This document shows positions 2,255-22,790 of a DNA stretch of 23,690 nt, piece after piece (the stretch's first letter is position 1; every line of letters begins with the position of its first letter). The translations under genes were made by a program, and so were the position numbers. The notes below the pieces were generated by a model. The model was not told the DNA's origin. It worked only from the letters and a program-made list of their open reading frames with translations, and ran no database searches. This stretch comes from Nanobdellota archaeon (GTDB taxonomy: Archaea > Nanobdellota > Nanobdellia > Pacearchaeales > GW2011-AR1), in the NCBI GenBank assembly GCA_018898425.1, contig JAHIHG010000066.1:1-23690 (forward strand), read 5' to 3'.

Positions 2255-2521
2255 TTATTTCAAAGCCCTAGAAATCAACCAGAGAAATAAAACACCAATA
2301 AAAGTTACAATAAAAGCAGTGATTACGCCTGCTTGAAAAATTGCAGTAGATTTAATATATTTTAAAACAAAATCATTTAAAGCAATAAGCAAAGGTTCTC
2401 TCCATGCAAAAGCAATAATAAAACCTGTTGCAGCACTTAAACCAATTCTCAAATGTTCTTTAAACTCTTTTGAAAATTTCTTTTTTCTTCCTCTTTTTTT
2501 CTTATATCTTTTAAGTGCCAT
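2255..2521 (-). CDS. small basic-headed membrane protein (DUF5654-like); paralog of 18539..18823
   Basis: 88 aa with a Lys/Arg-rich N-terminus, then GFIIAFAWRE and a C-terminal TM segment. The core FSKEFKEHLRI...GFIIAFAWRE aligns with FKKEFKRQLRI...GFTIAFTWRQ of the ORF at 18539. Confidence 0.6.
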   Translation of the reverse strand: MALKRYKKKRGRKKKFSKEFKEHLRIGLSAATGFIIAFAWREPLLIALNDFVLKYIKSTAIFQAGVITAFIVTFIGVLFLWLISRALK

Positions 2522-6288: not shown

Positions 6289-9200
6289 TTAAAAAAATTC
6301 ACTAAGAGGTTTTTGCTTCTCCAATTCTTTCCCAAAAATACTCTCAATATATCTTTTTACAAGTTCAAGATTTTGCTGTACATATGGTGAAAGGTCATAT
6401 TTTTTTGCTAAATCCAATGCAGGTTCTAGATATTTTTTAATTCCTCCTTCATGAATTGTAAAAATTAATTTCCCATTGCATTTAGGACAAGTTCCTTTTA
6501 AGGGAGGTCTTCTTATTATTTCATTACAAGCAACACACCTAAATTCCTGCATTGAAAATTTTCTTAAATTACCTCTCAAATCCCTAATAAAATGTCTTTC
6601 AATTACAAGTGTTGCTGTTGCAGTAGTATCTGCTGCCCTTATTCTTTCAACAAGTTCCATCTGATGCTGAACCTTTTCCTGCATTGTGGCTAAAAGCTTA
6701 TAAGAAGAGCAAGGAACCCCGTTATTAAAATCTGTTGTGTCATGAGTAAACCCTGCCCCAATAAAAGGATTTTCTCCTTTTCTTAAAATCTCTTTAACAT
6801 TATGTATTTTTAATTTTGAAGAATGTTCTTTTTTTTCAGCAAGTTCATACAATTCCAAAGGATATTCATAAACAAATTCAAAATCAAGTATCTGATCATC
6901 AACTTCTCCTGCATCTATTTTAGCATTCAAAACTAAAGGAGCATCTTGTGTTCCTCCCCTGTGACTTGGCAAAAATTCTCGTGAAAAATTAAGCAAAACA
7001 TCTCCTAAAAGCATAATAGCTGCCTCATCTCCATCACACCTCGCATTTATAATTTGTTCCCCCCATAAAACATTTTTATCCTCTTCACTCTCCCATTCCA
7101 CTTCAAAACAATATGAAGGAATTTTTTCTTTAAAAAAAACAACTTCTTTAATTATATCTACAAAAATATCATTCTCTTTTTCTAAACTAAAAAATTTATG
7201 ATTATATTTAATTTTTCTTTTTCTGCAATTTTTAAATTCAACATTTTTTATTAAAGCCAATTTTCTTTTATTCGCCGGATTTAAAATTTTAACTATTCCA
7301 TAAAAATCTTCTCCACTATAAACAAGATGCTGAAGAATATGCTTTTTTGGTTCCTTATTAAGCTCTTTATATCTTTCTAAAACCTTTTTTCCAGGGAGTC
7401 GCTCATTAGTTTTGCTAAATCTTCCAAATAATCCGAATTTACAACCTAATAAAGAAATGCCATCAAGAAGCTTCCTGCTAACAGAATAAAAACAGATAAA
7501 TTTTCTTTTACCATATACAATAGTCCCATCACCATCAAAATAACAAGATAAATAAGCCCTTACTTTTTTTTCAGAAACATTAAAAATAATGTTTGGAACT
7601 CTTTTCTCATAAGCACCACCACCAGCATCAAAACAATATTTAAATAAATAATAAACAAGTTTATTGCAAATAGTGATTTTAGTTTTATCCTCGCCAAAAC
7701 TAGGAATTAATCCAAAAGCACCTTTGATTGAAGATTCCAATTTTCTCCTTTGCTCTTTATCTATAATCCTAAAACAAATTTGTGACACAGTTTTTGTCTG
7801 CCTAGAATGCCCTTCAGCAGAATAATAACCCAAAACATTCATTAAATCCTCACCAACCTTAAACATTAAATCCCATTTTTTATTATTAAAAATAGTTCTT
7901 ATCTTTGCTGTTTTGGGGATGTCTTGCCACTTCATCAAACCATGATCAATAAATTTAAGCACATGATTTAAAGGAACTAATTTATACCAATCAGATAAAT
8001 TATTAAAATCATTATTAATATTAAACAATTTAATAAATTTAGATATGCCTACTTTTTTTACTAATTTCTTAAAAAATTCTTTGGCATCAACAACTCTTAC
8101 TTTAAATAATTCTTTTTCAGGAAGATTCTCTGATAAAAGTTTTGGAAGAAAAACCTCTTCAATTAAATTACTCTTAACATCAAATTTATTAATTAAAGCT
8201 ATTCTGTCTCCTTTTTTTATTTCGCCTGCTTTTTTTACTTGAAAATTATTTTTTTTATCAAGATAAATAAATTTGTGCCTTGGGGTCATAACTTGTTCTC
8301 TTCCACTAGAAGTCTTTATCTTAACCCATTTTTCAGGCGGAGCTCCTTTAATAAAATATTTAATCTTTTTTTTCTTCAACTTCTTGCTTACAGGATCAAC
8401 CCCAAATGCATAAAGCTCTTTATCTAAATCAACCCTAATAGTACCATAAGAATCAATCTTTCTTGTCTTATGTCCCTTCTCAATTAAATTTTCAACATAA
8501 TTTCCTATTGCCTCATTTTTAACTTCTCCATTATCAGAATAAATAAAATTTGTCATAGGATAAACACAATCTCTTCTAATAGCTGCATGCATATATGGGC
8601 TGGCAAACAAACCCAAAGTATTTGAAAAACCAATAAATCTGCAAATAACTCCTGCACAATTATGAGGAGCCATACAAACACCTAATTGCCCCACTAAATC
8701 TTCTCTTTTTTTAACATTATAAAAAGATTTTAATTTATAAAAATTTACAAGCAAATCATCAACAAAATTACAAATATTCATAAAAACATCTTCTCCTTTC
8801 TCATCTATTGTTTGTGAAAAATTTGGAATAAGAACATCATGAGGCATTAACTCTAAAATTTGTTCTTCATTAACAAGCTCCTTTCCATGAATATCTTTAT
8901 CATAACCTAATTCTTTTAATTTTTTCACACTCGTAAAAATTTCTTTTGGTTTAAAACACACCAAGGGTAATTCAGTTGCATCAAATCTTATTGTTCCATC
9001 TTTATTTACTTGCAAATTATGTTTTGCTCTTAAAACTCCTTTTGAAAGATTTTCAAGAGCATGATTTGTTGAAGAAGTTGTTCTAATTCCTTTAATCAAA
9101 AGAGGAGATTCAGATTTAATTATATTTAATTTTTGAATAGCTTTGTCAAAATAATGCATTATATCTAAATCCTGAACACAATATTGCGTTCCTTCTTCTT

Positions 9201-11286
9201 TTTCTTCATTAACTCTTTTAAAAGATTTTTCCTTATTTTTATAAAAATAATATTTTTTCCTGCATTTTCCCCCACAATCTTCGCAACAAGGATAAATAGT
9301 TTCTTTCTTGCATTTTTCACAATAATAAAGAGGAAACAAGCTTCTTACTTTCCCCTCTTCACATGCAGCCTGCACACTCCTCAATCTTCCTCCTTCTTTT
9401 CCAATAGGAAATAAAACATTCGGGCTTCCTGCTAATTTTCTTAATTTTGCTTTTTCAGGCCTACCCATTCTTGTTCCAATAAAATCTCCTGCTTTGTCTT
9501 TTATTTCAAATTCTGAAAAAGAATTTATGATTTCTAAAATATCTTTATTTAAATCAAATGTTTCTTTGATAACAGAATTTTTAAGAGAAAAATCTGTATT
9601 ATTTAACAAATTTAAATTCAATCCAAGATTAGCCAACAAAGATTTACTATTTTCTTTATTTAAAACAACATTTTCAATACTAACCTGATGTTCAATACCT
9701 AATAACTCCAAAGCTCTTTTACCTAATTTAAATTTTTCTTGTTCTAGTTTGTTAAAAGGAAAAATTATCCTCCTGTCTCTTATTACAGAGTGATGTAACC
9801 AATCAATAAAATTTAAAAATTGCTCTTTAGAAATTTCAGTCCAGTAAAAAATAAAATTTGGATGCAAAGGAATTTTAAATTTCTGACTTAATTCAACTGC
9901 TTTTTCAAAATCAACATTAAAATAATCTATTTCATTTTCTATTTCCTTAGATTTTGTTCTTAAATTAAGAGCCCACCATTCCTCAACATAACCTGGTTTA
10001 ATCAAAGTTGCATTTCTATTTGCCAAATCGCTAAAAGGAAACAAAATATCCCCTAAATAAATAATTTCTTCAATATCTGGATAAATTTGTTTAGCTTCTT
10101 CTTTTGTTTTTATTTTTTTTACACTTCCGCTAATTAATTTCACAATAGGTCCTTCAATAGAATCGCAAGAAGTAGTTACACACCCTTTAGTTGGTTTTTC
10201 TATTTTTAATTGAGTTCCTATTGCAATAAATCCATCGGTAATAGCCATTGTAGCAGGATGAATAGAGGCAGCACTAAAACCTGACACCCTACTCCTACCA
10301 TACCTAAATCTAAAGCCTCCTGAACAAGAAGGATGCCCAAAAACAGGCCTTCCAGCAACTAAATCCTTTATATAAGTTGGAGAAGCATCTGCTTTTCCTT
10401 TTTCTCTTTTTTCATGTAATTTAATATAATCTTCTAAAAAATCAAAACCTGTTGTTTTAATTCCATTTTTTTTAACACCTGCCAATAGTCTAAATCCTTT
10501 AGCAGCTTTTTGAGCTAATCCTTCTGCTAAAATCAAACAAAAACCACTTCTAAGAAAATTAGTATTAACTCTCTCAAGATTTTTATAATTAGAAACCTCT
10601 AGTTTTTCAGAAGCATCTCCTGCAACCTGGATAGGAATATGCCTTGCTAAAAAAAGTGTTTCCTCTTCTGTAGGCATATATTGCAAATTTGTAATTCTAT
10701 CATGAAAATCCCGTAATTCTGCATAAGTTCTTTTTATCTCTTCTTCAGTTGCATCATATTTTGCATAACCAAACAATTCCCTTAGATAATCTATGAGCAT
10801 TAGCACAACACAAGAAGCAGTAGTTCCAGCACTTCTAATTGGTCCTGAAAAACAAGCAATAAAATAGTCTTTTCCTTCTCTTGTTTTACCTAATTTTAAT
10901 TCAGTAAAGCCTTCAATTGGAGAAGAAACAACTCCTAAAGTAACATATGCAAAACCAATTCTTATTCCTGCATCAATTGCCTGCAATAAAGTTTCAAACC
11001 CGCAAAATTTTTGTTTAGCCACCTCTTCTGCAATCTTAAAAGCCACAGTTGTATCTAATTTCCCATATTCTTTTTCTAATTCAAGAATTCTTTTTGCAAT
11101 TCCAGAATTCATCATTTGAGGATAAATAGTTGAAATCAATCCCACAACTTTTTCAGCCATAGACATTGCCAAAGGAATTTCAACCTTATCAACAGGATCT
11201 AGTCCCTTGCTTCTTGCCTCTTCAGCAAGCTCATAGACATTTCTAACTTCTTTTTCAATATTTTTAAAATATAATTCTGTGTTCAT
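6289..11286 (-). CDS. polC: DNA polymerase II (PolD) large subunit DP2, interrupted by an intein
   Basis: 1665-aa ORF.
- Active-site region: PYMHAAIRRD[intein]CDGDEAAIMLLGDVLLNFS, compared with remembered HAAKRRNCDGDED...LLNFS.
- Internal Zn finger: CEKC...CCEDCGGKC.
- C-terminal Zn finger: CVACN...CPKCNGK.
- The host protein without the intein is 1155 aa. Confidence 0.93.
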   Translation of the reverse strand: MNTELYFKNIEKEVRNVYELAEEARSKGLDPVDKVEIPLAMSMAEKVVGLISTIYPQMMNSGIAKRILELEKEYGKLDTTVAFKIAEEVAKQKFCGFETLLQAIDAGIRIGFAYVTLGVVSSPIEGFTELKLGKTREGKDYFIACFSGPIRSAGTTASCVVLMLIDYLRELFGYAKYDATEEEIKRTYAELRDFHDRITNLQYMPTEEETLFLARHIPIQVAGDASEKLEVSNYKNLERVNTNFLRSGFCLILAEGLAQKAAKGFRLLAGVKKNGIKTTGFDFLEDYIKLHEKREKGKADASPTYIKDLVAGRPVFGHPSCSGGFRFRYGRSRVSGFSAASIHPATMAITDGFIAIGTQLKIEKPTKGCVTTSCDSIEGPIVKLISGSVKKIKTKEEAKQIYPDIEEIIYLGDILFPFSDLANRNATLIKPGYVEEWWALNLRTKSKEIENEIDYFNVDFEKAVELSQKFKIPLHPNFIFYWTEISKEQFLNFIDWLHHSVIRDRRIIFPFNKLEQEKFKLGKRALELLGIEHQVSIENVVLNKENSKSLLANLGLNLNLLNNTDFSLKNSVIKETFDLNKDILEIINSFSEFEIKDKAGDFIGTRMGRPEKAKLRKLAGSPNVLFPIGKEGGRLRSVQAACEEGKVRSLFPLYYCEKCKKETIYPCCEDCGGKCRKKYYFYKNKEKSFKRVNEEKEEGTQYCVQDLDIMHYFDKAIQKLNIIKSESPLLIKGIRTTSSTNHALENLSKGVLRAKHNLQVNKDGTIRFDATELPLVCFKPKEIFTSVKKLKELGYDKDIHGKELVNEEQILELMPHDVLIPNFSQTIDEKGEDVFMNICNFVDDLLVNFYKLKSFYNVKKREDLVGQLGVCMAPHNCAGVICRFIGFSNTLGLFASPYMHAAIRRDCVYPMTNFIYSDNGEVKNEAIGNYVENLIEKGHKTRKIDSYGTIRVDLDKELYAFGVDPVSKKLKKKKIKYFIKGAPPEKWVKIKTSSGREQVMTPRHKFIYLDKKNNFQVKKAGEIKKGDRIALINKFDVKSNLIEEVFLPKLLSENLPEKELFKVRVVDAKEFFKKLVKKVGISKFIKLFNINNDFNNLSDWYKLVPLNHVLKFIDHGLMKWQDIPKTAKIRTIFNNKKWDLMFKVGEDLMNVLGYYSAEGHSRQTKTVSQICFRIIDKEQRRKLESSIKGAFGLIPSFGEDKTKITICNKLVYYLFKYCFDAGGGAYEKRVPNIIFNVSEKKVRAYLSCYFDGDGTIVYGKRKFICFYSVSRKLLDGISLLGCKFGLFGRFSKTNERLPGKKVLERYKELNKEPKKHILQHLVYSGEDFYGIVKILNPANKRKLALIKNVEFKNCRKRKIKYNHKFFSLEKENDIFVDIIKEVVFFKEKIPSYCFEVEWESEEDKNVLWGEQIINARCDGDEAAIMLLGDVLLNFSREFLPSHRGGTQDAPLVLNAKIDAGEVDDQILDFEFVYEYPLELYELAEKKEHSSKLKIHNVKEILRKGENPFIGAGFTHDTTDFNNGVPCSSYKLLATMQEKVQHQMELVERIRAADTTATATLVIERHFIRDLRGNLRKFSMQEFRCVACNEIIRRPPLKGTCPKCNGKLIFTIHEGGIKKYLEPALDLAKKYDLSPYVQQNLELVKRYIESIFGKELEKQKPLSEFF
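7039..8568 (-). mobile_element. 510-aa intein with a LAGLIDADG homing-endonuclease domain, inside PolD DP2
   Basis: - Cys1 (tgt, plus-strand aca at 8566-8568) begins CVYPMTNF.
- Block B TxxH: MTPRHKF.
- LAGLIDADG motifs: LMNVLGYYSAEGHS and RAYLSCYFDGDGTI.
- Block F/G: SYCFEVEW...NVLWGEQIINAR, followed by Cys+1 (7036-7038).
- The C-terminal blocks align with the remembered P. abyssi PolII intein end (NVIINENIVTHQ|C). Confidence 0.85.
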
Positions 11287-14756: not shown

Positions 14757-14801
14757 TTTTAATTTAAATAAAATAAATTAAAAAATTTATACAATAAGAA
14801 T

Positions 14802-14827
14802 ACACACACAGTGATTTCCTATGGAAA
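14802..14827 (+). repeat. ORB-like box 1
   Basis: acacacacagtgATTTCCTATGGAAa. Confidence 0.65.
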
Positions 14828-14901
14828 ATCTTTTAAATTTAAATCATTCGTCAATAAAAAATTAAGTTATTATATAAAGTCTTATAACTACTAAAAAAGA
14901 A

Positions 14902-14924
14902 AAACACCTAAATTTCCTATGGAA
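14902..14924 (+). repeat. ORB-like box 2
   Basis: aaacacctaaATTTCCTATGGAA. Confidence 0.6.
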
Positions 14925-15000
14925 TATGTTTTTTTATTTTTAAAATTCCTAATCCCTTAATACTTACTTTATTATCTTCTTTTGATTTTATACTCTTTTT

Positions 15001-15125
15001 TCTTTTTTATTATTATTATTATAATTATTATATACTATATTTTTTTATAATAATAATAATAATAATAATAAACTATATACTATATAATATATATAAATAT
15101 AAATTAAATATAAATTAAAAATTTC
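15001..15125. repeat. A/T-only duplex-unwinding-element candidate with inverted trinucleotide tracts
   Basis: (tta)n at about 15007-15030 and the complementary (taa)n at about 15046-15072, followed by tatata-type low complexity. Almost no G/C across the segment. Confidence 0.6.
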
Positions 15126-15145
15126 AAAAAATCCTTTTTAAATAC

Positions 15146-15174
15146 TTCCATACGAAATCAAAGGGTGAGTGTGT
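15146..15174 (-). repeat. ORB-like box 3 (inverted)
   Basis: The plus strand reads ttccatacgaaatcaaagggtgagtgtgt. The reverse complement is acacactcaccctttgATTTCGTATGGAA, facing boxes 1 and 2 across the A/T element. Confidence 0.6.
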
Positions 15175-15369
15175 TTTATTATTATATCTCTTTTTTATAA
15201 TTATTCTTCTTATTCTTATAATTATTAACATAATCAACGCATATTCTTTTTTTATAAGAATAATAAAGTAAAATTATTAAGAAATCTAAAATAACCTTTT
15301 GTAATATATACTTTTAAATCCATTTATTTTTACAGAAAAGTTTATAAAGAATTTACCTCTAAAATTAAT

Positions 15370-16593: not shown

Positions 16594-17316
16594 ATGGAAA
16601 ATATAAAAAAAGCTTTTAGTAAAGTAAAAGAAGATATGATCTCTTTGAATTATGAAATTAATTCTTTAAAAAAGAATATTATAGAAAACAGAGCAAAAAT
16701 GATAGAAATGTGTGAAATTCTTAAGCAATTAAATGAAAAAATAATTCTTTTATCTGATAAAAAAGAAACTAAAGAGGACTTAGACACTTCGACAGACAGA
16801 CAGATAATTCAGACAGACAGACAAATACTTTCGACACATAATGAGCTTTTTAACCCTTTAAAACACCAAAATATACCTATTTCCATTGGAAATGAAGGGG
16901 CTTCGACAGACAGACAGACAGACACTTCGACAGACAGACAGACACAAAATATGCCTAAAAATGAAGAAAAAAGCTATATAAGAGATGCTTTAGATATTAT
17001 AAATTCCCTAGATGATTTAAAAAAAGAAATGAGGTTTAAATTTAAAAGACTTACAGAGCAGGAATTTTTAGTTTTTTCAACAATTTATCAATTAGAAGAA
17101 ACTATCAATAAGGAAGATTCTTTGAATTACAGGGTTCTTTCTGAAAAACTTAATTTAACTGAAAGTTCTATTAGAGATTATGTCGGAAGATTAATAAAAA
17201 AAGGTATTCCCGTCGAGAAAAAAAAATTAAATAATAAAAACATAATTCTTTTTTTATCAAAAGATTTTAAAAAAATGATTTCTTTACCTACTCTTTTACA
17301 ATTAAGAGATTTATAA
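16594..17316 (+). CDS. coiled-coil / STDRQ-repeat / C-terminal winged-helix DNA-binding protein
   Basis: - N-terminal heptad-like segment: FSKVKEDMISLNYEINSLKKNI.
- Central (S)TDRQ repeats, encoded by (GACA)n DNA.
- C-terminal wHTH: LTEQEFLVFSTIYQLEE...LSEKLNLTESSIRDYVGRLIKKGIPV. Confidence 0.6.
   Translation: MENIKKAFSKVKEDMISLNYEINSLKKNIIENRAKMIEMCEILKQLNEKIILLSDKKETKEDLDTSTDRQIIQTDRQILSTHNELFNPLKHQNIPISIGNEGASTDRQTDTSTDRQTQNMPKNEEKSYIRDALDIINSLDDLKKEMRFKFKRLTEQEFLVFSTIYQLEETINKEDSLNYRVLSEKLNLTESSIRDYVGRLIKKGIPVEKKKLNNKNIILFLSKDFKKMISLPTLLQLRDL
16786..16944 (+). repeat. tetranucleotide (GACA)n tracts inside the CDS
   Basis: gaca x3.5 at 16791-16804, agac x3 at 16811-16822, gaca x5 at 16905-16924 and gaca x4 at 16929-16944. 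Three of these are preceded by cttc. Confidence 0.85.
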
Positions 17317-17381
17317 CTACATAAAATAAAGTTATTCGTTCAAAAGGATAACTCTAAGTAAACTTTTTCATTCTTTTTATT

Positions 17382-17524: not shown

Positions 17525-18136
17525 TTAGTCTTTTTTAGTCTTTTTTCTTAACTTAACACTCACTTTTGGCTTTTTAAGCATCTGTTCCTTTACACTTTCA
17601 GGTATAAAAATCCTTTTTTTACCATTTTTCTCTATTTTCTCTTGAATTAAACCCTCACTTTTCTGTTTTATACTATTTATTTGGCCTCTTATAGTAGATC
17701 TCTCTTTCCCCAGTACAGCAGCTAAATCATCATAGCTAAGCTTCATATCACTGTTTAACAAGATCCATAAAATAGCTCGTTCAGTTATAGAAAATTGCTC
17801 TAATTTTGGTGTTTGGACAGCTGTTTGGACAGCTGTTTGGACAGCATAAACAGCTGTTTGTTTATTAAACAGCTGTTTAGGTGTTTTAAACACGCTGTTG
17901 GGTTTTAAGTCATTCATAATTGAAAATATATTTTTTAATCCTTCTATCTCATTTTGTATCGACGATAAAACCTCTTTTATCTCTTCTACTTCTTTTTTTT
18001 GCATATTTTTTTCAGAATCAAGGTGTTTAATCCACCCGCTTACAGCAGTTATATCTTTTTTTACAGATTCAAAACTTGTTTTTGTATCGTCTTTTAACTT
18101 TTCAATCTCTTTTTTTCTTTTAAACAAACCAAACAT
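17525..18136 (-). CDS. coiled-coil / TAVQ-repeat / C-terminal winged-helix DNA-binding protein (same architecture as 16594..17316)
   Basis: - N-terminal coiled coil: FESVKKDITAVSGWIKHLDSEK...EIEGLKNI.
- Central repeat: TAVYAVQTAVQTAVQT.
- C-terminal wHTH: ITERAILWILLNSDMKLSYDDLAAVLGKERSTIRGQINSIKQKSEGLI. Confidence 0.6.
   Translation of the reverse strand: MFGLFKRKKEIEKLKDDTKTSFESVKKDITAVSGWIKHLDSEKNMQKKEVEEIKEVLSSIQNEIEGLKNIFSIMNDLKPNSVFKTPKQLFNKQTAVYAVQTAVQTAVQTPKLEQFSITERAILWILLNSDMKLSYDDLAAVLGKERSTIRGQINSIKQKSEGLIQEKIEKNGKKRIFIPESVKEQMLKKPKVSVKLRKKTKKD
17811..17875. repeat. 12-nt tandem repeat (gtttggacagct x3) plus further AAACAGCTGTTT palindromes inside the CDS
   Basis: CAGCTG occurs at 17818, 17830, 17851 and 17870. 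A degenerate cacgctgtt lies at 17891. Confidence 0.85.
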
Positions 18137-18240
18137 GATTAATAATAAATAAAAGCACTTTAAAAACTTTTTGTTTTTCGTCGATAAAAATTGATTTTGT
18201 AATTTTTTAAAAAAATAAAAAAGATGTGTCGAAGACCCTG

Positions 18241-18256
18241 GATTTCATATGGAAAA
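18241..18256 (+). repeat. ORB-like box in the accessory-region intergenic space
   Basis: GATTTCATATGGAAAA, compared with oriC box 1 GATTTCCTATGGAAAA: 15 of 16 identical by eye. Confidence 0.55.
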
Positions 18257-18258
18257 AC

Positions 18259-18413
18259 CAGCTGTTTAAACAAAAAAATACTGACAAACAGCCTGTTTAA
18301 ACAGCCTTAAACAGCTGCCCAAGAGATAAATAATTACAAACAGCTGTTTAAAGTTTAATAGAAATTTAATTTTCTCCCTCGATAAAACTAACAAACAGCC
18401 TGTTTAAACAGCT
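18259..18413. repeat. iteron field: five copies of AAACAGC(C)TG(TTTAAAC)
   Basis: - cagctgtttaaaca at 18259-18272
- acaaacagcctgtttaaacagcc at 18284-18306
- aaacagctg at 18309-18317
- acaaacagctgtttaaag at 18336-18353
- acaaacagcctgtttaaacagct at 18391-18413. Confidence 0.8.
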
Positions 18414-18443
18414 TTAAGATAAAGAAGAACAATAAAATTATAT

Positions 18444-18465
18444 AACTAAGTTAACCTAAGTGCAC
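18444..18465 (+). repeat. 22-nt direct repeat R1
   Basis: aactaagttaacctaagtgcac. Confidence 0.85.
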
Positions 18466-18538
18466 GAACTACACTATAAAATAAAATTTATTAAAAAATT
18501 CACAAAAATTTATAAATTTACATTCTTATAGCACTTTA

Positions 18539-18823
18539 ATGAAAGAGGGGTTTCTACATTTTTTTACTGGAAAGGGCAGACGTTTTAAAAAAGAGTTCAA
18601 AAGACAGCTTAGAATTTTAATTCTTTTTACTTTAGGTTTTACAATTGCTTTTACCTGGCGTCAAACAGTTTTTGATCTTTCACAATCAATTATACAGTTT
18701 TTTATAGAAATAAAAAATATCTCTGTTTTGAGCATCTTAACATCAACTTTTATTACAATCATAAGCATAATTTTAATTTATTTAACATCTTACTATTTAA
18801 GAGATTGTCCTGAAAATTATTAG
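18539..18823 (+). CDS. small membrane protein (DUF5654-like), paralog of 2255..2521
   Basis: 94 aa. RRFKKEFKRQLRILILFTLGFTIAFTWRQ plus a C-terminal TM segment. A TATA-like tttataaa lies about 25-30 nt upstream. The ORF is flanked by R1 and R2. Confidence 0.6.
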   Translation: MKEGFLHFFTGKGRRFKKEFKRQLRILILFTLGFTIAFTWRQTVFDLSQSIIQFFIEIKNISVLSILTSTFITIISIILIYLTSYYLRDCPENY

Positions 18824-18839
18824 TCTTTTGTATCTAAAG

Positions 18840-18861
18840 AACTAAGCTAACCTAAGTGCAT
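18840..18861 (+). repeat. 22-nt direct repeat R2
   Basis: aactaagctaacctaagtgcat; 396 nt from R1. Confidence 0.85.
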
Positions 18862-18939
18862 AACTTTCAAATAAAAGCAATATTTAAAAAAATATGCTGG
18901 TACAGCAATCTTTATTAATCAAATTTAATTAATTTTTTT

Positions 18940-19266
18940 ATGGATATTCGGGATTATAAGGGAAAACCCCTAAAAATTAATAGCCTTTATTTAAATACAT
19001 CTTCAAGGAGTGTTGAATATCTTACAGTTTTCCCATTACATTGCCCAGAAGGCATATGCAAAGTTACTGAGTTATATGAAGATAAAAACAAAGAGAAAAT
19101 TCTTAAAATAACCTATGAAATAAATAATTCTTCATTATGTTTTAAAGGAGATTCAGCATATGATTTTGGGGCACAATTATTACTTTTAAATCAGAGAGAC
19201 AAAGAAATTTTAATCAAAGATAGAAAAAGAAAATTATCTTTTTTAGAAGGTAGTGAATTAAGCTAA
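18940..19266 (+). CDS. hypothetical protein (108 aa)
   Basis: Clean ORF between R2 and R3. Its last codons and its TAA stop lie inside R3 (gaa tta agc TAA cct aag). No recognisable family. Confidence 0.45.
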   Translation: MDIRDYKGKPLKINSLYLNTSSRSVEYLTVFPLHCPEGICKVTELYEDKNKEKILKITYEINNSSLCFKGDSAYDFGAQLLLLNQRDKEILIKDRKRKLSFLEGSELS

Positions 19267-19277
19267 CCTAAGTGCAC
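19256..19277 (+). repeat. 22-nt direct repeat R3
   Basis: aattaagctaacctaagtgcac; 416 nt from R2. Confidence 0.85.
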
Positions 19278-19391
19278 ACAATCTGTAAGAAAATCATAAA
19301 TAAATAAAAAAATCTTTAAAATTATATTAAAATAACCCCGCTGCTTTAAATTACACAAGTTTCTCCTACTTTTAACGCAATATTTATATAC

Positions 19392-19442
19392 TTAGGGCAC
19401 CCTAAATATACGTGAACTTGGTTAACAATACCCTAAGTTCAC
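19392..19442. promoter_or_regulatory. two adjacent palindromic sites related to R1-R3 (candidate recombinase binding or crossover sites)
   Basis: - Site A: TTAGGG-ca-CCCTAA at 19392-19405.
- Site B: GTGAACTTggttaacaataccctAAGTTCAC at 19412-19442. Its inner part (cttggttaac....cctaagttcac) parallels R1 (ctaagttaac-cctaagtgcac).
- Site B ends 16 nt before the operon ATG, which has a GAGG Shine-Dalgarno-like box. Confidence 0.5.
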
Positions 19443-19457
19443 ATTTTAAAGAGGAAA

Positions 19458-19934
19458 ATGACTATATTTTTTATATCTGGAGCAGAAGGTGTTGGGAAGA
19501 CAACAATATTAGGACATTTAATAAGAGAATTGCCGGATAAAGATATTCATGATTTTGATGAGATTGGAGTTCCAAAAAATCCTAAATTAAGCTGGAGATA
19601 TAAAACAACAAAACATTGGCTAAAAATAGCTAAGAATAATGAAAAAATTGGAAAGGATACAATTATTGTGGGATTAAGTTTTCCAAGCGAAATTATAAAA
19701 TTTTCAAAGAAAAAGAATTTTCATTTTTGTTTGTTTGATATTAGTATAAACGAGCGAGAAAAAAGATTAAGAAAAAGAAAATCTACAAAAGGAGTAATAG
19801 ATGATTTAGAACAATTAAAACAACTAAGGGAAGAATTTAAAAAATTAAAATCAAAAAAGATTATTAATATTTCTCATTTAACTCCTAAAGAAATTTCTTC
19901 AAAATTAATTAAATGGATTAATAGCTTAAAATGA
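19458..19934 (+). CDS. P-loop NTPase / small kinase-like protein
   Basis: Walker A ISGAEGVGKTT at the N-terminus. Its size and layout resemble nucleotide-kinase-like AAA proteins. Its TGA stop overlaps the recombinase ATG (ATGA). Confidence 0.65.
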   Translation: MTIFFISGAEGVGKTTILGHLIRELPDKDIHDFDEIGVPKNPKLSWRYKTTKHWLKIAKNNEKIGKDTIIVGLSFPSEIIKFSKKKNFHFCLFDISINEREKRLRKRKSTKGVIDDLEQLKQLREEFKKLKSKKIINISHLTPKEISSKLIKWINSLK

Positions 19935-20695
19935 CCCCAAACAAACCATTAGCAGCAATCTATGTCCGAGTTTCAACTCAAGACCAAGCTCAGCATGGAT
20001 ATTCCTTAAAAGCCCAACAAGAAGCACTAGAAAATTATTCTAAAGCATTGGGATATGAAATATTCAAAATATATAAGGATGAAGGAAAATCTGCAAAAAA
20101 TATGAACCGCCCACAAATGATTAAAATGTTAGAAGATGCTGAAAGCAAAAAGTTTTCAGCTATTTTTATTTATAAGCTTGATAGATTTTCAAGGAGTGTT
20201 GTGGATGCAATATTAACAATTGATAAATTAAAAAAATGGGGGATTGATTTTGTTTCAATGCAGGATAAGATAGAAACTGCATCTGCCACAGGAAAGTTAA
20301 TGTTCCATATGATTTCTGCCTTTGCAGAATTTGAAAGAAATATGATCGGAGACCGAACAAAATTTGGGATGGAAAGAAAAGTAAAAGAAGGAGGGTTTAT
20401 TACAAAAGCCCCAAAAGGATACAAACTTGTAGATAAGCAACTTGTTCCTAATGAGGATTCTGAAAATTTATCTAAAATTTTTGAAAAATTCTTTAATCAA
20501 AGCATAAGTTTAACACAATTAGCTAAAGAAAATAACATGACTGCTTCTGGTATGAAAAAATTACTCCAAAATACAACATATATAGGAAAAGTTAAATTCG
20601 CACATGAAGAGTCTCAAGGAAATCATCAGCCTATCTTATCTAAACAGCTGTTTGAACAGGTTCAAGATAAAATTAAACAGCTTGGATGGAGTTAA
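19931..20695 (+). CDS. serine recombinase (resolvase catalytic domain plus recombinase domain; no zinc-ribbon/coiled-coil C-terminus)
   Basis: - Catalytic domain: AAIYVRVSTQDQ (catalytic Ser motif), DEGKSAK, KLDRFSRS, AEFERNMIGDRTKFG.
- Recombinase-domain pattern: Y.GK..F.....QGNHQPILS..LF..VQ.
- It is only 254 aa long. Confidence 0.9.
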   Translation: MTPNKPLAAIYVRVSTQDQAQHGYSLKAQQEALENYSKALGYEIFKIYKDEGKSAKNMNRPQMIKMLEDAESKKFSAIFIYKLDRFSRSVVDAILTIDKLKKWGIDFVSMQDKIETASATGKLMFHMISAFAEFERNMIGDRTKFGMERKVKEGGFITKAPKGYKLVDKQLVPNEDSENLSKIFEKFFNQSISLTQLAKENNMTASGMKKLLQNTTYIGKVKFAHEESQGNHQPILSKQLFEQVQDKIKQLGWS

Positions 20696-21253
20696 ATGAG
20701 AATTTTACCAAAAACTTTTAATGAGGCATTAAATTTGGTTTGCAATATTTTAATTCAAGGAGATTCTAGGTATAATAATTCTGAAAATGAAGTTTTCTTA
20801 GCCAACTCAATATTAAATGAAATAATTAATTTAGAGGAAAAAGAAATTCCAAAAATAAACAAACCAAATGAAAACAATTTATTGAAAATGGGTTATGTCC
20901 AAAAACATGAAAAATATGTGGCAAAAATACTTCTTAAACAAAATGGTTTTCAAGATAGCGAAATATTTTTTGAGAGGAGATTTAGGGGATCAAGACCTGA
21001 TGTTTTAGGGGAAAAAGAAGAGGCATTTATCCCAGTTGAATGCTGTTCATGTAGAATAGATAAAATCATTGACTATCTCCAAGAATCAGAAGAAGTTTGG
21101 ATTATAACAAGAGAATTTTGTAATGAAGAAATGAAATGGTTTGTTTTTAAAAAAGGATTAAATTGGCAGAGATATTCTAAAATTAAAAAAATACAACAAG
21201 AAAAACTAAAAAGAATTAAATCACCTTTAGATGATATCATGGGCAGAAAATAA
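20696..21253 (+). CDS. hypothetical protein, possible PD-(D/E)xK-like nuclease fold
   Basis: Starts immediately after the recombinase stop (TAAATG). The segment HEKYVAKILLKQNGF...RPDVLGEKEEAFIPVECCSC loosely resembles the E...PD...(D/E)x(K) layout of Hjc/restriction-type nucleases, but the Lys position is not conserved. Weak call. Confidence 0.45.
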   Translation: MRILPKTFNEALNLVCNILIQGDSRYNNSENEVFLANSILNEIINLEEKEIPKINKPNENNLLKMGYVQKHEKYVAKILLKQNGFQDSEIFFERRFRGSRPDVLGEKEEAFIPVECCSCRIDKIIDYLQESEEVWIITREFCNEEMKWFVFKKGLNWQRYSKIKKIQQEKLKRIKSPLDDIMGRK

Positions 21254-21286
21254 TCAAAATAAAAAGCCCAATAGATAGTTTATAAA

Positions 21287-21430
21287 ATGAAACTCAAAAA
21301 CCCAAAAGTTGTAATTTACTCAATTATTGCATTATTCTGCTTAGTTTTATCTTTTATAGTTGATTGGTTATTTATTATTCCTGCAGCAATCTTAATGTAT
21401 TTAAATCAAAAAGAATTAATGAAAAAATAA
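21287..21430 (+). CDS. possible 47-aa membrane peptide
   Basis: Manual read: MKLKNPKVVIYSIIALFCLVLSFIVDWLFIIPAAILMYLNQKELMKK*. It stops 1 nt before the next ATG. Confidence 0.3.
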   Translation: MKLKNPKVVIYSIIALFCLVLSFIVDWLFIIPAAILMYLNQKELMKK

Positions 21431-21431
21431 A

Positions 21432-21980
21432 ATGAAAACTAAATGTATAAAATGCGGATTTGAGTCAGAGGAAAATTTAGAGAAATTCAGAGTTCCTATA
21501 TGCAATATTTGTTTTAGATTTGCTCCAAATAGTGAAGATAAATTTAAAGAATATGTTTCTGAAAAAATAGAAAGTTTATGCTTGGATTCTTTTAGAAAAT
21601 TTTCTGAACTAGGAAATCCTCAAAAAAAAGCTATGATTAAAAAAGCCTCACAGGGAAATTTTATGTCAAGAGCAGCTTTTGGATATAAAATTCAAAATAA
21701 AAAATTAATTCTTGCTGAAAATTTTAGAGAAATTCAGGAAATTTTTGAAGAATTTTTAAATCAAAACATAAGTTTAACACAATTAGCCAAAAAACACAAT
21801 TTTTCTGTTAACGGGTTAAAAAAAATACTGACAAATTTTACTTATTTAGGTAAAATAAGATTTAATAATCAAATACATCAAGGGAATCATCAACCTCTTG
21901 TCTCTTCAACTTTGTTTAATCATGTACAAAACAAGCTTGAAAGATTAAAATCAAATAAAAATTGCAAAATAGAGGAATAA
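21432..21980 (+). CDS. Zn-ribbon protein carrying a recombinase domain paralogous to 19931..20695 but lacking the serine-recombinase catalytic domain
   Basis: - N-terminus: CIKCGF...CNIC (CxxC..CxxC).
- C-terminus: FLNQNISLTQLAKKHNFSVNGLKKILTNFTYLGKIRFNNQIHQGNHQPLVSSTLFNHVQNKL aligns with FFNQSISLTQLAKENNMTASGMKKLLQNTTYIGKVKFAHEESQGNHQPILSKQLFEQVQDKI.
- DNA 21759-21787 matches 20495-20523 at 28 of 29 positions. Confidence 0.65.
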   Translation: MKTKCIKCGFESEENLEKFRVPICNICFRFAPNSEDKFKEYVSEKIESLCLDSFRKFSELGNPQKKAMIKKASQGNFMSRAAFGYKIQNKKLILAENFREIQEIFEEFLNQNISLTQLAKKHNFSVNGLKKILTNFTYLGKIRFNNQIHQGNHQPLVSSTLFNHVQNKLERLKSNKNCKIEE

Positions 21981-22029: not shown

Positions 22030-22374
22030 ATGGAAAGAAAAAGATTAAATTCAAAACTTAAATATCCTCAACCACACAGCATTCACATTGATACAGGCAA
22101 TTCTGCTCTTAATGCAAGAACTATAGATTATTTACATGCAAAAGCCAAGCATAAAGCAAAATTAACTCAGAAACAAAGACGAACAGAAAAAAGAAAAGAA
22201 ACTATCTTAAATCTTGCCTTAGAAGAAAAAATTTATTGCATATCTCATAAAAGATTTCTTTCACCAGAGAGTGTTCTTGAACATAAATGTTATATAAGGC
22301 ATGGAAATCCTCCTGTTTGCAAATATCTTTATTATGAAAATTCAAAAAAACAATTGAAGAGATATCAAAAATAA
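22030..22374 (+). CDS. hypothetical basic protein (114 aa)
   Basis: Lys/Arg-rich ORF with scattered Cys/His (CISH...HKCYIRHGNPPVC). It is convergent with rps9. No family recognised. Confidence 0.4.
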   Translation: MERKRLNSKLKYPQPHSIHIDTGNSALNARTIDYLHAKAKHKAKLTQKQRRTEKRKETILNLALEEKIYCISHKRFLSPESVLEHKCYIRHGNPPVCKYLYYENSKKQLKRYQK

Positions 22375-22376
22375 AA

Positions 22377-22790
22377 TTATCTCTTAGAACTCTGTCTCTT
22401 TTTTCTTGCTTTACTATCGCCTGGTTTATAAGCTTCTTTTCTTCTTACGTCTGCTACAAGCAAGTTTCTGTCATAATTTGAAAAAGCTTTTGATAATGCT
22501 TCTGATTTTGTAAAATTAACAATTGCTTTTGCTAAAGCAAGTCTGGCAGCTTCAACCTGGCTTTTTTCTCCACCACCTTTTACTTCAATATTTACATCAA
22601 AATTTATTGGTCCAATTATTTTTTCTGCTATTTTTAATGGTTCTTGTATTTGAAGTTTATCGAACATTTGCATGTTTTCATAATTTTTTTTATTGATTTT
22701 AATTTGTCCAGAACCTTTCATGATAATTGCTCTTGCTTTAGCTGTTTTTCTTTTTCCTGAAGCAACAATTCTTTTTAATTTATTTTCCAT
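22377..22790 (-). CDS. rps9: 30S ribosomal protein S9 (uS9)
   Basis: ASGKRKTAKARA..., ...VKGGG..SQ.EA.RLA.AKA..., and the C-terminal ...KARKKRQSSKR are typical of uS9. Confidence 0.93.
   Translation of the reverse strand: MENKLKRIVASGKRKTAKARAIIMKGSGQIKINKKNYENMQMFDKLQIQEPLKIAEKIIGPINFDVNIEVKGGGEKSQVEAARLALAKAIVNFTKSEALSKAFSNYDRNLLVADVRRKEAYKPGDSKARKKRQSSKR

Follow-up and report, generated by a model that had tools for sequence, protein, structure and literature searches.

A short repeated element at the joints of a strain-variable gene array beside a site-specific recombinase in Woese- and Pacearchaeota

Short direct repeats that alternate with single small genes, just upstream of a gene for a serine recombinase, raise the question of whether this archaeal chromosome carries a cassette platform and, if so, what the repeat contributes to it. 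Here, we consider that question for the window, that is the whole stretch of 23,690 nucleotides that was analysed, and for related loci in genomes and metagenomes.

The repeat R and its chromosomal setting

Scanning the window with the pattern AAYTAAGYTAACCTAAGTGCAY gave exactly three matches, at 18444-18465, 18840-18861 and 19256-19277, all on the + strand and with 0 mismatches, and none over 100 shuffles. These are precisely the three near-identical direct repeats listed in a preliminary description of this DNA, and its spacings of 396 and 416 nt were recovered unchanged; its further statements, that each interval holds a single small ORF (18539-18823, 94 aa, and 18940-19266, 108 aa, both on the + strand) and that the second ORF stops within the third repeat (TAA at 19264-19266), were likewise borne out. 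The possible degenerate copy that it had placed at 17348-17363 did not hold up, being outside a scan allowing six mismatches; of 98 related loci, only 10 have CTAAGT or ACTTAG in the corresponding intergenic space. All five occurrences of the heptamer CCTAAGT in the 23.7-kb window fall within 18455-19438. The copies, as delimited by the pattern scan and by a logo of 225 unique copies, and the features to their left are:

17525..18136, - strand: wH203, a coiled-coil and winged-helix protein, conserved left anchor of the island (weak HTH_11/HTH_29 matches)
18137..18443, no strand: wH203-R1 spacer with four to five palindromic boxes AAACAGCTGTTTAAAC (repeat family D9)
18444..18467, + strand: R1, AACTAAGTTAACCTAAGTGCAC followed by GA
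18840..18863, + strand: R2, AACTAAGCTAACCTAAGTGCAT followed by AA; left joint of the strain-variable segment
19256..19279, + strand: R3, AATTAAGCTAACCTAAGTGCAC followed by AC; holds the stop codon of the 108-aa ORF

R spans about 24 nt with well-defined limits and is present in one to five copies per locus; the logo has 24 conserved positions and a sharp 5' edge. Its core consists of two CTWAG pentamers one helical turn (10-11 bp) apart, followed by GTGCAC, and its symmetry is odd (8+1+8). TAA stands at positions 4, 9 and 14, and thus in all three + frames, and TAG in three frames on the - strand. About 20% of the copies lie within ORFs that read through them as ..NKANLSA.., with the frame-1 stop lost and the DNA sequence retained.

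We found R at one syntenic locus in about 40 Woese- and Pacearchaeota genomes and at 80 metagenome loci, in a setting with a conserved winged helix-turn-helix (wHTH) gene on one side, rpS9/rpL13 on the other and orc1 near. Homologues of wH203 (46-78% identity) lie directly left of the first R, divergently oriented, in essentially all related loci, and in 69 of 94 loci the 9-mers of the spacer boxes are found again within the coding repeat of wH203. The preliminary description had considered that the repeat might be dispersed genome-wide; this is not so, as a scan of 185,579 species genomes with an exact 18-mer of R gave matches in about 40 species, confined to one locus in each genome. Three bacterial loci (L023, L024 and L035) also match the 18-mer and were taken as accidental, because by our own estimate tens of matches are expected by chance in 596 Gb under uniform composition. 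The sole genome with two R matches has both on short contigs, apparently neighbouring pieces. As for orientation, 130 of 130 further copies in the metagenome loci were on the + strand, and in the genome loci the count was 39 against 6.

A dispersed repeat (MITE end, REP or terminator) was rejected on the single locus per genome, the single orientation and the lack of a stem or T-run; the sole terminator-like match in the region, 18895-18907, falls outside the R copies. No Rfam model matched at R (E <= 1), ARAGORN found no tRNA in the window and the GC patches 3' of R are not consistently complementary, and R was accordingly rejected as a noncoding RNA or tRNA fragment. An attC-like hairpin was also dismissed: folding of R together with its flanks yields -0.6 to -1.7 kcal/mol (z -0.6 to +1.3), and R plus downstream sequence gives no consistent hairpin. 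An origin recognition box (ORB) is likewise unlikely, since none of the related loci has an R-like copy on its orc1 side; R is not known to resemble published ORB cores.

Module genes and their exchange between strains

The two stretches bounded by the R copies of the window, together with the spacer that follows R3, contain:

18539..18823, + strand: module 1 gene, a DUF5654-like membrane protein of 94 aa, family F1
18864..19369, + strand: strain-variable segment, comprising a promoter, the 108-aa orphan ORF (18940-19266), R3 and a spacer

In the family searches suggested in the preliminary description, the 94-aa protein gave a weak DUF5654 match, below the Pfam cut-off, and p108, the 108-aa protein, had no homologue among 5.8e9 proteins. 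Of the 118 module gene families across the loci, 97 have a single member. The modules measure 0.1-1.5 kb, their ORFs are nearly all co-oriented, and each has its own TATA-like promoter between R and the start codon; starts lie 55-110 nt past R and, in about half of the cases, the stop codon falls between -16 and +30 nt relative to the R that follows. Three families of small membrane proteins, F1-F3, are conserved over dozens of species (homologues of F1 occupy the first module in 36 loci), and their constant order points to vertical inheritance rather than shuffling.

The modules between R copies nevertheless turn over, and strains exchange them at the borders of R and of P, the promoter/operator element of the recombinase operon. 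An invariant arrangement, also considered in the preliminary description, was not found: copy number (1-5), R-R spacing (75-1546 nt) and gene content all differ. The window and locus L137 have flanks that are 99.9% and 99.85% identical around a non-homologous middle; in L137, L139 and L141, with flanks of 98.9-99.9% identity, 413 non-homologous nt containing a 104-aa ORF and its own copy of R stand in place of 18864..19369. The junctions between the window and L137 are the 3' edge of R2 (identity ends at 18863-18867) and the 5' edge of P, so that the R3-to-P spacer is also exchanged, which a simple R × R exchange does not predict. Between L013 and L034, the swapped stretch runs exactly from the end of R2 to the start of R3, and the window diverges from L082 from R2 on. 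In the two closest strain pairs, and between the window and L082, the module that differs is the one most proximal to the recombinase. In L118/L119 and L055/L056, the breakpoints do not coincide exactly with R; the close pairs are few, with 11 informative ends in all.

Contig termini in several runs cluster at 18837|18838 and 19369|19370: contigs begin at 18838 or stop at 18837 in several assemblies, and four contigs from four sequencing runs all begin exactly at 19370. Because contigs break off at the junctions, both module variants appear to coexist within samples.

The recombinase operon, site P and the PF07508 domain

To the right of the array, the island continues with:

19370..19457, + strand: P, conserved promoter/operator of the recombinase operon, with BRE/TATA TTTTAACGCAATATTTATATA and an SD-like GAGG
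19388-19409, within P: palindrome P1, ATACTTAGGG-CA-CCCTAAATAT
19412-19442, within P: P2, GTGAAC..CCCTAAGTTCAC
19458..19934, + strand: P-loop kinase-like cargo gene, first of the operon (weak thymidylate/guanylate-kinase matches)
19931..20695, + strand: serine recombinase, 254 aa (PF00239, E = 4e-43, residues 8-154; PF07508, E = 3e-8, residues 179-249)
20696..21253, + strand: 185-aa protein without a family match (homologues in L027, L032, L070 and L082)
21432..21980, + strand: RecD182, with a degenerate HNH/Zn ribbon and a 'Recombinase' domain (PF07508, E = 3e-8)
22030..22374, + strand: basic protein of 114 aa, whose gene closes the island ahead of rpS9 (22377-22790, - strand)

The palindrome at 19412-19442 noticed in the preliminary description is real, and proved to be part of the larger element P. 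It adjoins P1, a 10+2+10 palindrome centred on CA or TG that overlaps the TATA/TSS region; R3 starts 132 nt upstream of P1, and the other R copies lie 400 nt or more away. P folds into two palindromes (z = -3.35); an RNA hairpin in the 5' UTR was rejected as the nature of P2, because the arm substitutions between loci are not consistently compensatory. The slot of the cargo gene is filled in other loci by different genes (a HAD hydrolase and others). The 254-aa recombinase has catalytic and 'Recombinase' domains, with neither a zinc ribbon nor a coiled coil. Among solved structures, the catalytic domain of TP901-1 integrase is closest to it (E = 4e-29). Its best NCBIfam model is CcrB (E = 1e-42), with a score of 146 bits, far short of the cut-off of 900, and an alignment spanning only profile positions 9-281 of 542. 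RecD182 is a paralogue of the C-terminal half of the recombinase, the two sharing repeat D2 (20475-20598 versus 21739-21862, 74% identical).

The R array always lies directly upstream of the locus's one site-specific recombinase, which is not always of this type: among 29 complete loci, 17 have a serine recombinase with a palindromic P and 12 have XerA with a dif-like site, and none has both. From the start of the last R, it is 58-70 nt to the dif-like core (eight loci) and approximately 60-110 nt to P1 in the serine-recombinase loci. All 12 complete XerA loci lack the strict P1 pattern, which eight of the 17 complete serine-recombinase loci possess, as do several incomplete ones; variants of it are still recognizable in most of the remaining serine-recombinase loci. 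The XerA of the relatives reaches the XerA equivalog cut-off (231.8 versus 220) and stays below that for integron integrases (215 versus 265). No dif-like site was found in the window within three mismatches, and xerA is likewise absent from it.

R arrays are equally present in the 12 of the 29 complete loci that have no serine-recombinase catalytic domain, and a PF07508 domain of the window type is encoded in all 29. In at least four of the 12 XerA-type loci, this domain occurs only in a protein made of a coiled coil and PF07508, and the universal role of R is therefore something other than recombination by a locus-encoded enzyme. We infer that CTWAG is the half-site of the PF07508 domain and common to R and P, which share the half-site CCTAAGT. 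Loci whose serine recombinase has a different PF07508 domain (L082 and L028) also have a different P1, with R unchanged.

Known systems and the possible roles of R

Because the array varies between near-identical strains and always lies upstream of a recombinase, the locus behaves like a cassette platform, and it lies outside every one described; our literature search on serine-recombinase cassette systems in DPANN or other archaea returned nothing relevant. The preliminary description had seen in it the logic of an integron or cassette platform, and the cassette-platform logic is supported in part. The repeats at the module joints and the variable content agree with it, but 12 of 29 complete loci lack the serine recombinase, F1-F3 are conserved and some breakpoints are off R; there is no integron integrase, and R is not attC-like. 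The locus is neither an integron nor an SCC element.

As in integrons, a fixed platform beside a site-specific recombinase gene carries co-oriented, mostly single-gene and mostly orphan modules, the repeated site between modules often contains a stop codon, the recombinase-proximal module differs between close strains, content varies with junctions at the sites (the window versus L137, L013 versus L034), and arrays without a recombinase exist, comparable to CALINs. However, the recombinase is of the serine type (or XerA) rather than the tyrosine recombinase IntI, R is a sequence-conserved, unfolded, duplex-type site of about 24 bp whereas attC is a structure-conserved hairpin of 57-141 nt, and the modules here each have a TATA-like promoter, several of them being conserved across species, with only one to five sites per array. 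With SCC (CcrAB/CcrC) the locus shares a serine recombinase of the LSR lineage (CcrB being the best model) with a catalytic domain followed by a recombinase domain, one conserved chromosomal site near a replication-initiator gene and, by analogy only, short sequence-conserved direct repeats bounding tandem elements, some without a recombinase. It differs in a protein of 254 aa rather than some 450-700 aa, lacking the zinc beta-ribbon and embedded coiled coil and scoring far below the Ccr cut-offs, in modules of 0.1-1.5 kb rather than 3-60 kb, in its archaeal host, and in that R is intergenic beside a wHTH gene and not at the 3' end of rlmH (orfX).

The Xer/dif hitch-hikers (IMEX, Acinetobacter pdif) offer another parallel, in that 12 of 29 loci have xerA and a canonical 11-6-11 dif-like site directly beside the array, small modules are bounded by short recombination-type sites, and integrase-less viruses carry copies of a host site. 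R, however, lacks 11-bp inverted arms around a 6-bp spacer, and the dif-like site (Q) is found only in XerA-type relatives; since R is not dif-like, XerA is not expected to act on it. Finally, the res sites of Tn3/gamma-delta, Sin and beta resemble the locus in the palindromic crossover-type P1 (10+2+10) within the recombinase's own promoter and in further elements with the same half-site at other spacings on one side (P2 and R), with a direct-repeat logic; but R copies lie hundreds of bp apart with genes between, whereas res sites fit into about 120 bp, DNA binding falls to PF07508 rather than to a small HTH, and there is no transposon context.

The reading that we favour, tentatively and at not quite an even chance, is that R is a protein-binding joint of a single-gene module array, with the PF07508 domain as its likely reader. 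R would then be an orientation-fixed putative protein target of about 24 bp at the joints of a short hypervariable array. The array itself is set between a conserved regulator block (wH203 and its boxes) and the single site-specific recombination module of the locus, which is an LSR-derived serine recombinase with P in the window and XerA with a dif-like site in other lineages. The candidate reader, the PF07508 'Recombinase' DNA-binding domain, is present in every locus and, as that of the window is fused to a serine-recombinase catalytic domain, the recombinase probably binds both P1 and R. On P1 it would repress its own operon, and on R it could cut and rejoin R × R, excising or inserting modules. 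In lineages with only HNH, Zn-ribbon or coiled-coil versions of PF07508, R would be bound without site-specific recombination, and exchange would be homologous or nuclease-stimulated. Against enzymatic action, the odd symmetry of R, in contrast to the 10+2+10 of P1, is a poor geometry for a serine-recombinase crossover; against PF07508 as the reader, three wHTH proteins encoded beside R1 are equally universal candidate binders.

Those proteins (wH203, wH240 and wH90), or a noncatalytic PF07508 protein, would be the binders if R were purely regulatory or architectural – an operator/UAS, a transcription roadblock or a chromosome-boundary element by dif – with its copies serving as the sole homology patches for ordinary homologous swaps. 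We consider this rather unlikely, although much is consistent with it: R1 always adjoins the divergently transcribed wH203, R keeps a fairly constant distance from module starts with a TATA-like box between, paired CTWAG motifs at this spacing are what a dimeric HTH protein typically recognizes, the related P1 covers the TATA/TSS region in the manner of a repressor operator, R is kept in loci without an R-specific enzyme, and the recurring F1-F3 resemble a regulon. There is also a precedent in Thermococcus, in which a wHTH nucleoid protein on dif-flanking sequences forms chromosome boundaries (PMC11840125). Yet 18-24 invariant positions over roughly order-level divergence, in one orientation and 225 copies, exceed what is usual for an operator, the copies read through within ORFs still keep their DNA sequence, 22-24 bp is short for efficient homologous exchange although the junctions fall at the very edges of R, and the mostly orphan modules are left unexplained.

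Orphan genes and a strain-variable recombinase-proximal module would also fit an array of integration scars, left one after another by viruses or small circles that lack their own integrase, carry R, with or without a dif-like site, and exploit the host recombinase as IMEX elements do at bacterial dif; each integration would add one R, and decay would leave single-gene remnants. Head-tail virus contigs in IMG/VR do carry single R-like 21-mers in long non-coding regions, with no integrase beside them in the fetched parts of the contigs; in one (L128) a dif-like site follows R after about 50 nt, the layout of the host loci, and a perfect dif-like site is present in L158. By our own estimate, of the order of 1-3 matches to the 21-mer pattern are expected by chance in IMG/VR, and some of the viral matches may therefore be accidental. 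In addition, the dif-like site is absent from five of the six R-bearing viral contigs, neither a provirus nor a further dif-like or P site is seen between R copies in about 120 loci (the largest interval being 1.5 kb), and F1-F3 are host-like, all of which makes this origin improbable. Least probable by far is a module terminator without a DNA-binding partner, whose stop codons in six frames would close any upstream ORF: TAA in every + frame, TAG in every - frame and the many module ORFs ending within R agree with it, but stops need only 3 nt each and leave the conservation of GTGCAC(AA) and the spacing unexplained, the frame-1 stop is lost and read through in about 20% of copies, and the same half-site recurs in the operator-like palindromes of P.

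Should R indeed function as a joint for recombination or binding, the locus would represent a clade-wide, previously undescribed way of holding and exchanging genes in genome-reduced DPANN archaea, in which small accessory genes are exchanged at one safe chromosomal site. Its parts, a short duplex site and a domain derived from LSRs, would differ from those of integrons. A bolder and unlikely extension is that Woese- and Pacearchaeota independently invented an integron-like but serine-catalysed cassette capture by the PF07508 domain and the 24-bp duplex site R, in which the domain, when fused to a serine-recombinase catalytic domain, would excise and insert single-gene modules at R, and that the serine recombinase with P1 has repeatedly replaced XerA/dif in chromosome-dimer resolution. 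The platform occupies the position of XerA and dif in relatives, so it may be the dimer-resolution locus of the chromosome; whatever the role of R, the fact that one position takes either the serine recombinase with P or XerA with dif, and never both, suggests replacement in dimer resolution or competition of two recombinase modules for the slot. Were the former true, this would be the first serine-recombinase system for chromosome-dimer resolution. The strain-level variants in public read sets provide concrete samples in which to look for excision circles.

A locus-specific repeat array

The preliminary description of this DNA, made by a model from the sequence only, placed three direct repeats of 22 nt ahead of a serine-recombinase operon, with one ORF in each interval and the stop codon of the second ORF inside the third repeat, and all of this was borne out. 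The repeats, R1 to R3, have 0 mismatches (0 matches in 100 shuffles), the two ORFs, of 94 and 108 aa, are on the plus strand, the stop within R3 is TAA, and the operon comprises a P-loop kinase-like gene and the gene for a 254-aa recombinase (PF00239 and PF07508). Behind the recombinase gene come a 185-aa ORF, a gene for a 182-aa protein and a 114-aa ORF, and beyond them rpS9 and rpL13 on the opposite strand. Upstream of the array, this DPANN archaeon (GC about 27%) carries the genes for the DP2 and DP1 subunits of PolD, Orc1/Cdc6, a PRC-barrel protein and three wHTH proteins.

Features of the window
2255–2521, minus strand: gene for a second DUF5654-like small membrane protein, 88 aa, 16 kb off the array and with no R copy
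6289–11286, minus strand: DP2 (PolD large subunit) gene, ORF of 1665 aa, containing an intein with a LAGLIDADG homing-endonuclease domain (PF14890, PF14528)
14757–15369: gap of 18% GC upstream of orc1/cdc6, candidate replication-origin site
15004–15072: long (ATT)n/(AAT)n inverted repeats
17525–18136, minus strand: gene for the wHTH protein wH203
18444, plus strand: R1
18840, plus strand: R2
19256, plus strand: R3
19370–19457: P, promoter/operator of the recombinase operon
19388–19409: P1, 10+2+10 palindrome within P
21432–21980: gene for the 182-aa protein, with PF07508 only

Were the origin to lie at 14757–15369, the dif-like/serine-recombinase locus would be just 4–5 kb away, and dimer-resolution sites do not usually lie so near an origin.

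A search with TAAGYTAACCTAAGTGCA, in one genome per species, returned 43 loci, 40 of them in Woese-, Pace- and Nanoarchaeota MAGs; tblastn showed synteny of these loci with the window. R is a clade-wide, locus-specific element rather than a repeat dispersed through the genome. The shared order is DP2-DP1-Orc1, then PRC, p141, wH90 and wH240, then wH203 on the opposite strand, 200–1100 nt, the R copies, variable genes and rpS9-rpL13, and the same layout was found, via wH203, in 80 more metagenome loci. Each locus has 1–5 copies of R once degenerate ones (up to 4–6 mismatches) are counted, and the further copies are on the plus strand in 130/130 cases in the metagenome loci and in 39 vs 6 in the genome loci. 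The logo of 225 unique copies, [A/c]AC[T/a]AAG[c/t]TAACCTAAGTGCA[c]AA, has an abrupt 5′ boundary and allows two readings: one has a pair of CTWAG pentamers at a distance of 10 bp and then GTGCAC, the other an imperfect 8+1+8 palindrome, of which two loci (L039 and L069) have perfect variants. R provides TAA stops in the three plus frames and TAG in the three frames of the other strand.

Copies of R are spaced by 75–1546 nt (median 420). The module ORFs between them, nearly all on the plus strand, have a TATA-like box in front and start about 55–110 nt past R; many end between −16 and +30 nt from the next R. In about one-fifth of the copies ACAAAG replaces ACTAAG, and these copies lie within ORFs whose translation continues across R as ..NKANLSA..; because these ORFs still carry R, its DNA sequence is kept even within coding regions. 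Most of the array protein families (97/118) are singletons, and the 108-aa protein of the window had no homologue among 5.8 billion proteins. Three families of small membrane proteins recur in constant order: F1, which is DUF5654-like and includes the 94-aa protein of the window, at 36 loci, F2 at 23 and F3 at 11. The 88-aa protein is nearer to the first-module proteins of L012, L013, L017 and L034 than is the module-1 protein of the window. The DUF5654-like gene of L013 (3139–3400) has an in-frame TGA where the 95%-identical L034 (604–840) has TGG (Trp), which may reflect a pseudogene, a sequencing error or recoding.

Exchange of modules between close relatives

The arrangement is not fixed among related genomes: arrays differ, and strains that are almost identical have exchanged single modules at the repeat. 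Contigs from other samples were recovered by exact-protein look-up (L137, L139 and L141); the first is 99.9% identical to the window over 17810–18867 and 99.85% over 19360–21318, and the other two are 98.9–99.4% identical across the parts covered. In the middle, all three have 413 nt unrelated to the approximately 500 nt of the window, in which a different ORF, of 104 aa, runs through an R copy of its own to end ..QANLSA*, and the R-to-P spacer differs as well. The swap is bounded on the left by the 3′ edge of R2 and on the right by the 5′ edge of P. Several independent runs yielded contigs that begin at 18838 or stop at 18837, and four contigs begin exactly at 19370, the pattern that assembly graphs give if a sample contains both variants. 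Similarly, L013 and L034 (about 95% identity) have a non-homologous R2–R3 segment, identity ending at the last base of R2 and resuming at R3. The window and L082 (89–93% identity) diverge from R2 to the middle of the recombinase gene, and the R2 of L082 has decayed. Some mosaic boundaries lie off R, 34 nt before a copy in L118/L119 and in the wH203–R1 spacer in L055/L056, and the events are too few for a formal test of boundary enrichment at R.

The recombinase end and candidate readers of R

Two kinds of element stand at the promoter of the terminal operon.

P, ahead of the serine-recombinase operon: TATA; P1, ATACTTAGGG-(CA|TG)-CCCTAAGTAT; GTGAAC, about 14 nt, CCCTAAGTTCAC; a Shine–Dalgarno-like GAGG; start codon
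Q, in loci without the serine catalytic domain: rGTTCGYACAA-NNTATA-TTGTRCGAACy, with 11-bp inverted arms and a 6-bp spacer
Related loci at the serine-or-XerA slot (19370–20695 in the window): L016, L027, L032, L046, L049, L056, L068, L089, L091, L098, L103, L115

The strict P1 pattern occurs in 8/17 complete serine-recombinase loci, and several incomplete ones, vs 0/12 complete XerA loci, with recognizable variants in most other serine-recombinase loci; the right-hand element of P is identical to the right half of R. The 11-6-11 layout of Q is the dif architecture known from bacteria and archaea (PMC2958812), and its operon encodes a tyrosine recombinase that passes the NCBIfam XerA equivalog cut-off; in haloarchaea, too, dif is reported upstream of a xerA operon (PMC11840125). 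The window has no dif-like site. Of the 29 complete loci, the serine recombinase is present in 17 and XerA in 12, with no locus having both or neither, which suggests one slot in which either Xer/dif has repeatedly been replaced by a serine recombinase or two modules compete. As the two types are interleaved on the wH203 tree and the recombinase allele differs between close relatives, the end module is exchanged too.

The proposal of a serine-recombinase cassette platform stands in part. Its cassette logic passed the tests applied, R being confined to the locus and modules being exchanged at it, but R does not require the serine recombinase, as the array is also retained at XerA-type loci. Nor is the locus an integron, having neither IntI nor a folding attC, or an SCC element, its recombinase being a truncated LSR-type protein of 254 aa that falls far under the Ccr cut-offs.

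A PF07508 domain of the window type is present in 29/29 complete loci, fused to the serine catalytic domain, an intact HNH nuclease or a degenerate Zn ribbon, or with a short coiled coil only. In two loci (L082 and L028) the serine recombinase is of a second allele, with another PF07508 domain; the P1 there has a different sequence, whereas R and the CCCTAAGT element stay the same, and both loci also have the window-type domain, fused to HNH. This covariation of PF07508 with P1, and the CTWAG half-sites common to R and P1, make PF07508 the best candidate for binding R, the adjacent wHTH proteins, whose box motifs fill the wH203–R1 spacer, being alternatives. The last R starts 58–70 nt upstream of the dif-like core (eight loci) or 60–110 nt upstream of P1 (serine-type loci), so that R is also placed as an accessory site to the core recombination site would be. 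The reading best supported by these sequences makes R a protein-bound joint, with PF07508 as its probable reader, in a hypervariable array abutting the site-specific recombination module of the locus; exchange at R may be catalysed, whether by the serine recombinase or with stimulation from HNH, or may be homologous. Nearly as likely, R may be only an operator or architectural site, with exchange as a by-product.

One PF07508-coding segment, with about 87–89% nucleotide identity, is in-frame with the serine catalytic domain in the window (20396–20695) and with an intact HNH in its closest relative, L082 (2774–3085), and so N-terminal catalytic modules are swapped on a constant DNA-binding domain. 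The linker-coding tandem repeats of the coiled-coil wHTH proteins (AVQT, STDRQT) share 9–10-mers with palindromic boxes of the wH203–R1 spacer (wH203 gene, 17805–17878 and 18260–18420; wH240 gene, 16782–16951 and 18226–18240). The shared motif covaries between lineages (AACAGCTGT vs AACAGGTGT), and sharing for wH203 was counted in 69/94 loci, a count without an unrelated-gene control.

R and dif-like sites in viral contigs

Six IMG/VR contigs carry an R-like 21-mer, of which about 1–3 would be expected by chance (own estimate), and the matches in L044 and L045 may therefore be accidental. The R-bearing contigs are of head-tail viruses (terminase, portal, capsid, Hjc), with no recombinase in the parts fetched and no integrated form seen. 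The other four (L126–L129) have the extended R consensus and a T-variant of R in common, and in L128 a dif-like site follows R by about 50 nt, as at the host loci; a further contig, L158, has a perfect dif-like site and no R. These findings hint that integrase-less elements exploit the host locus.

Five of the contigs (L044, L126, L128, L129 and L158) are 11.7–12.6 kb long, with head-tail terminase, portal and capsid genes, and no integrase was found in the four that were scanned, L158 being compared with the proteins of this locus only. One member of the scanned set (L044–L045, L126–L129) has a match to archaeal Hjc resolvase. L129 (12.2 kb) is probably a whole genome, its direct terminal repeat being 127 nt long. 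The small head-tail contigs are possibly Xer-exploiting viruses of DPANN archaea.
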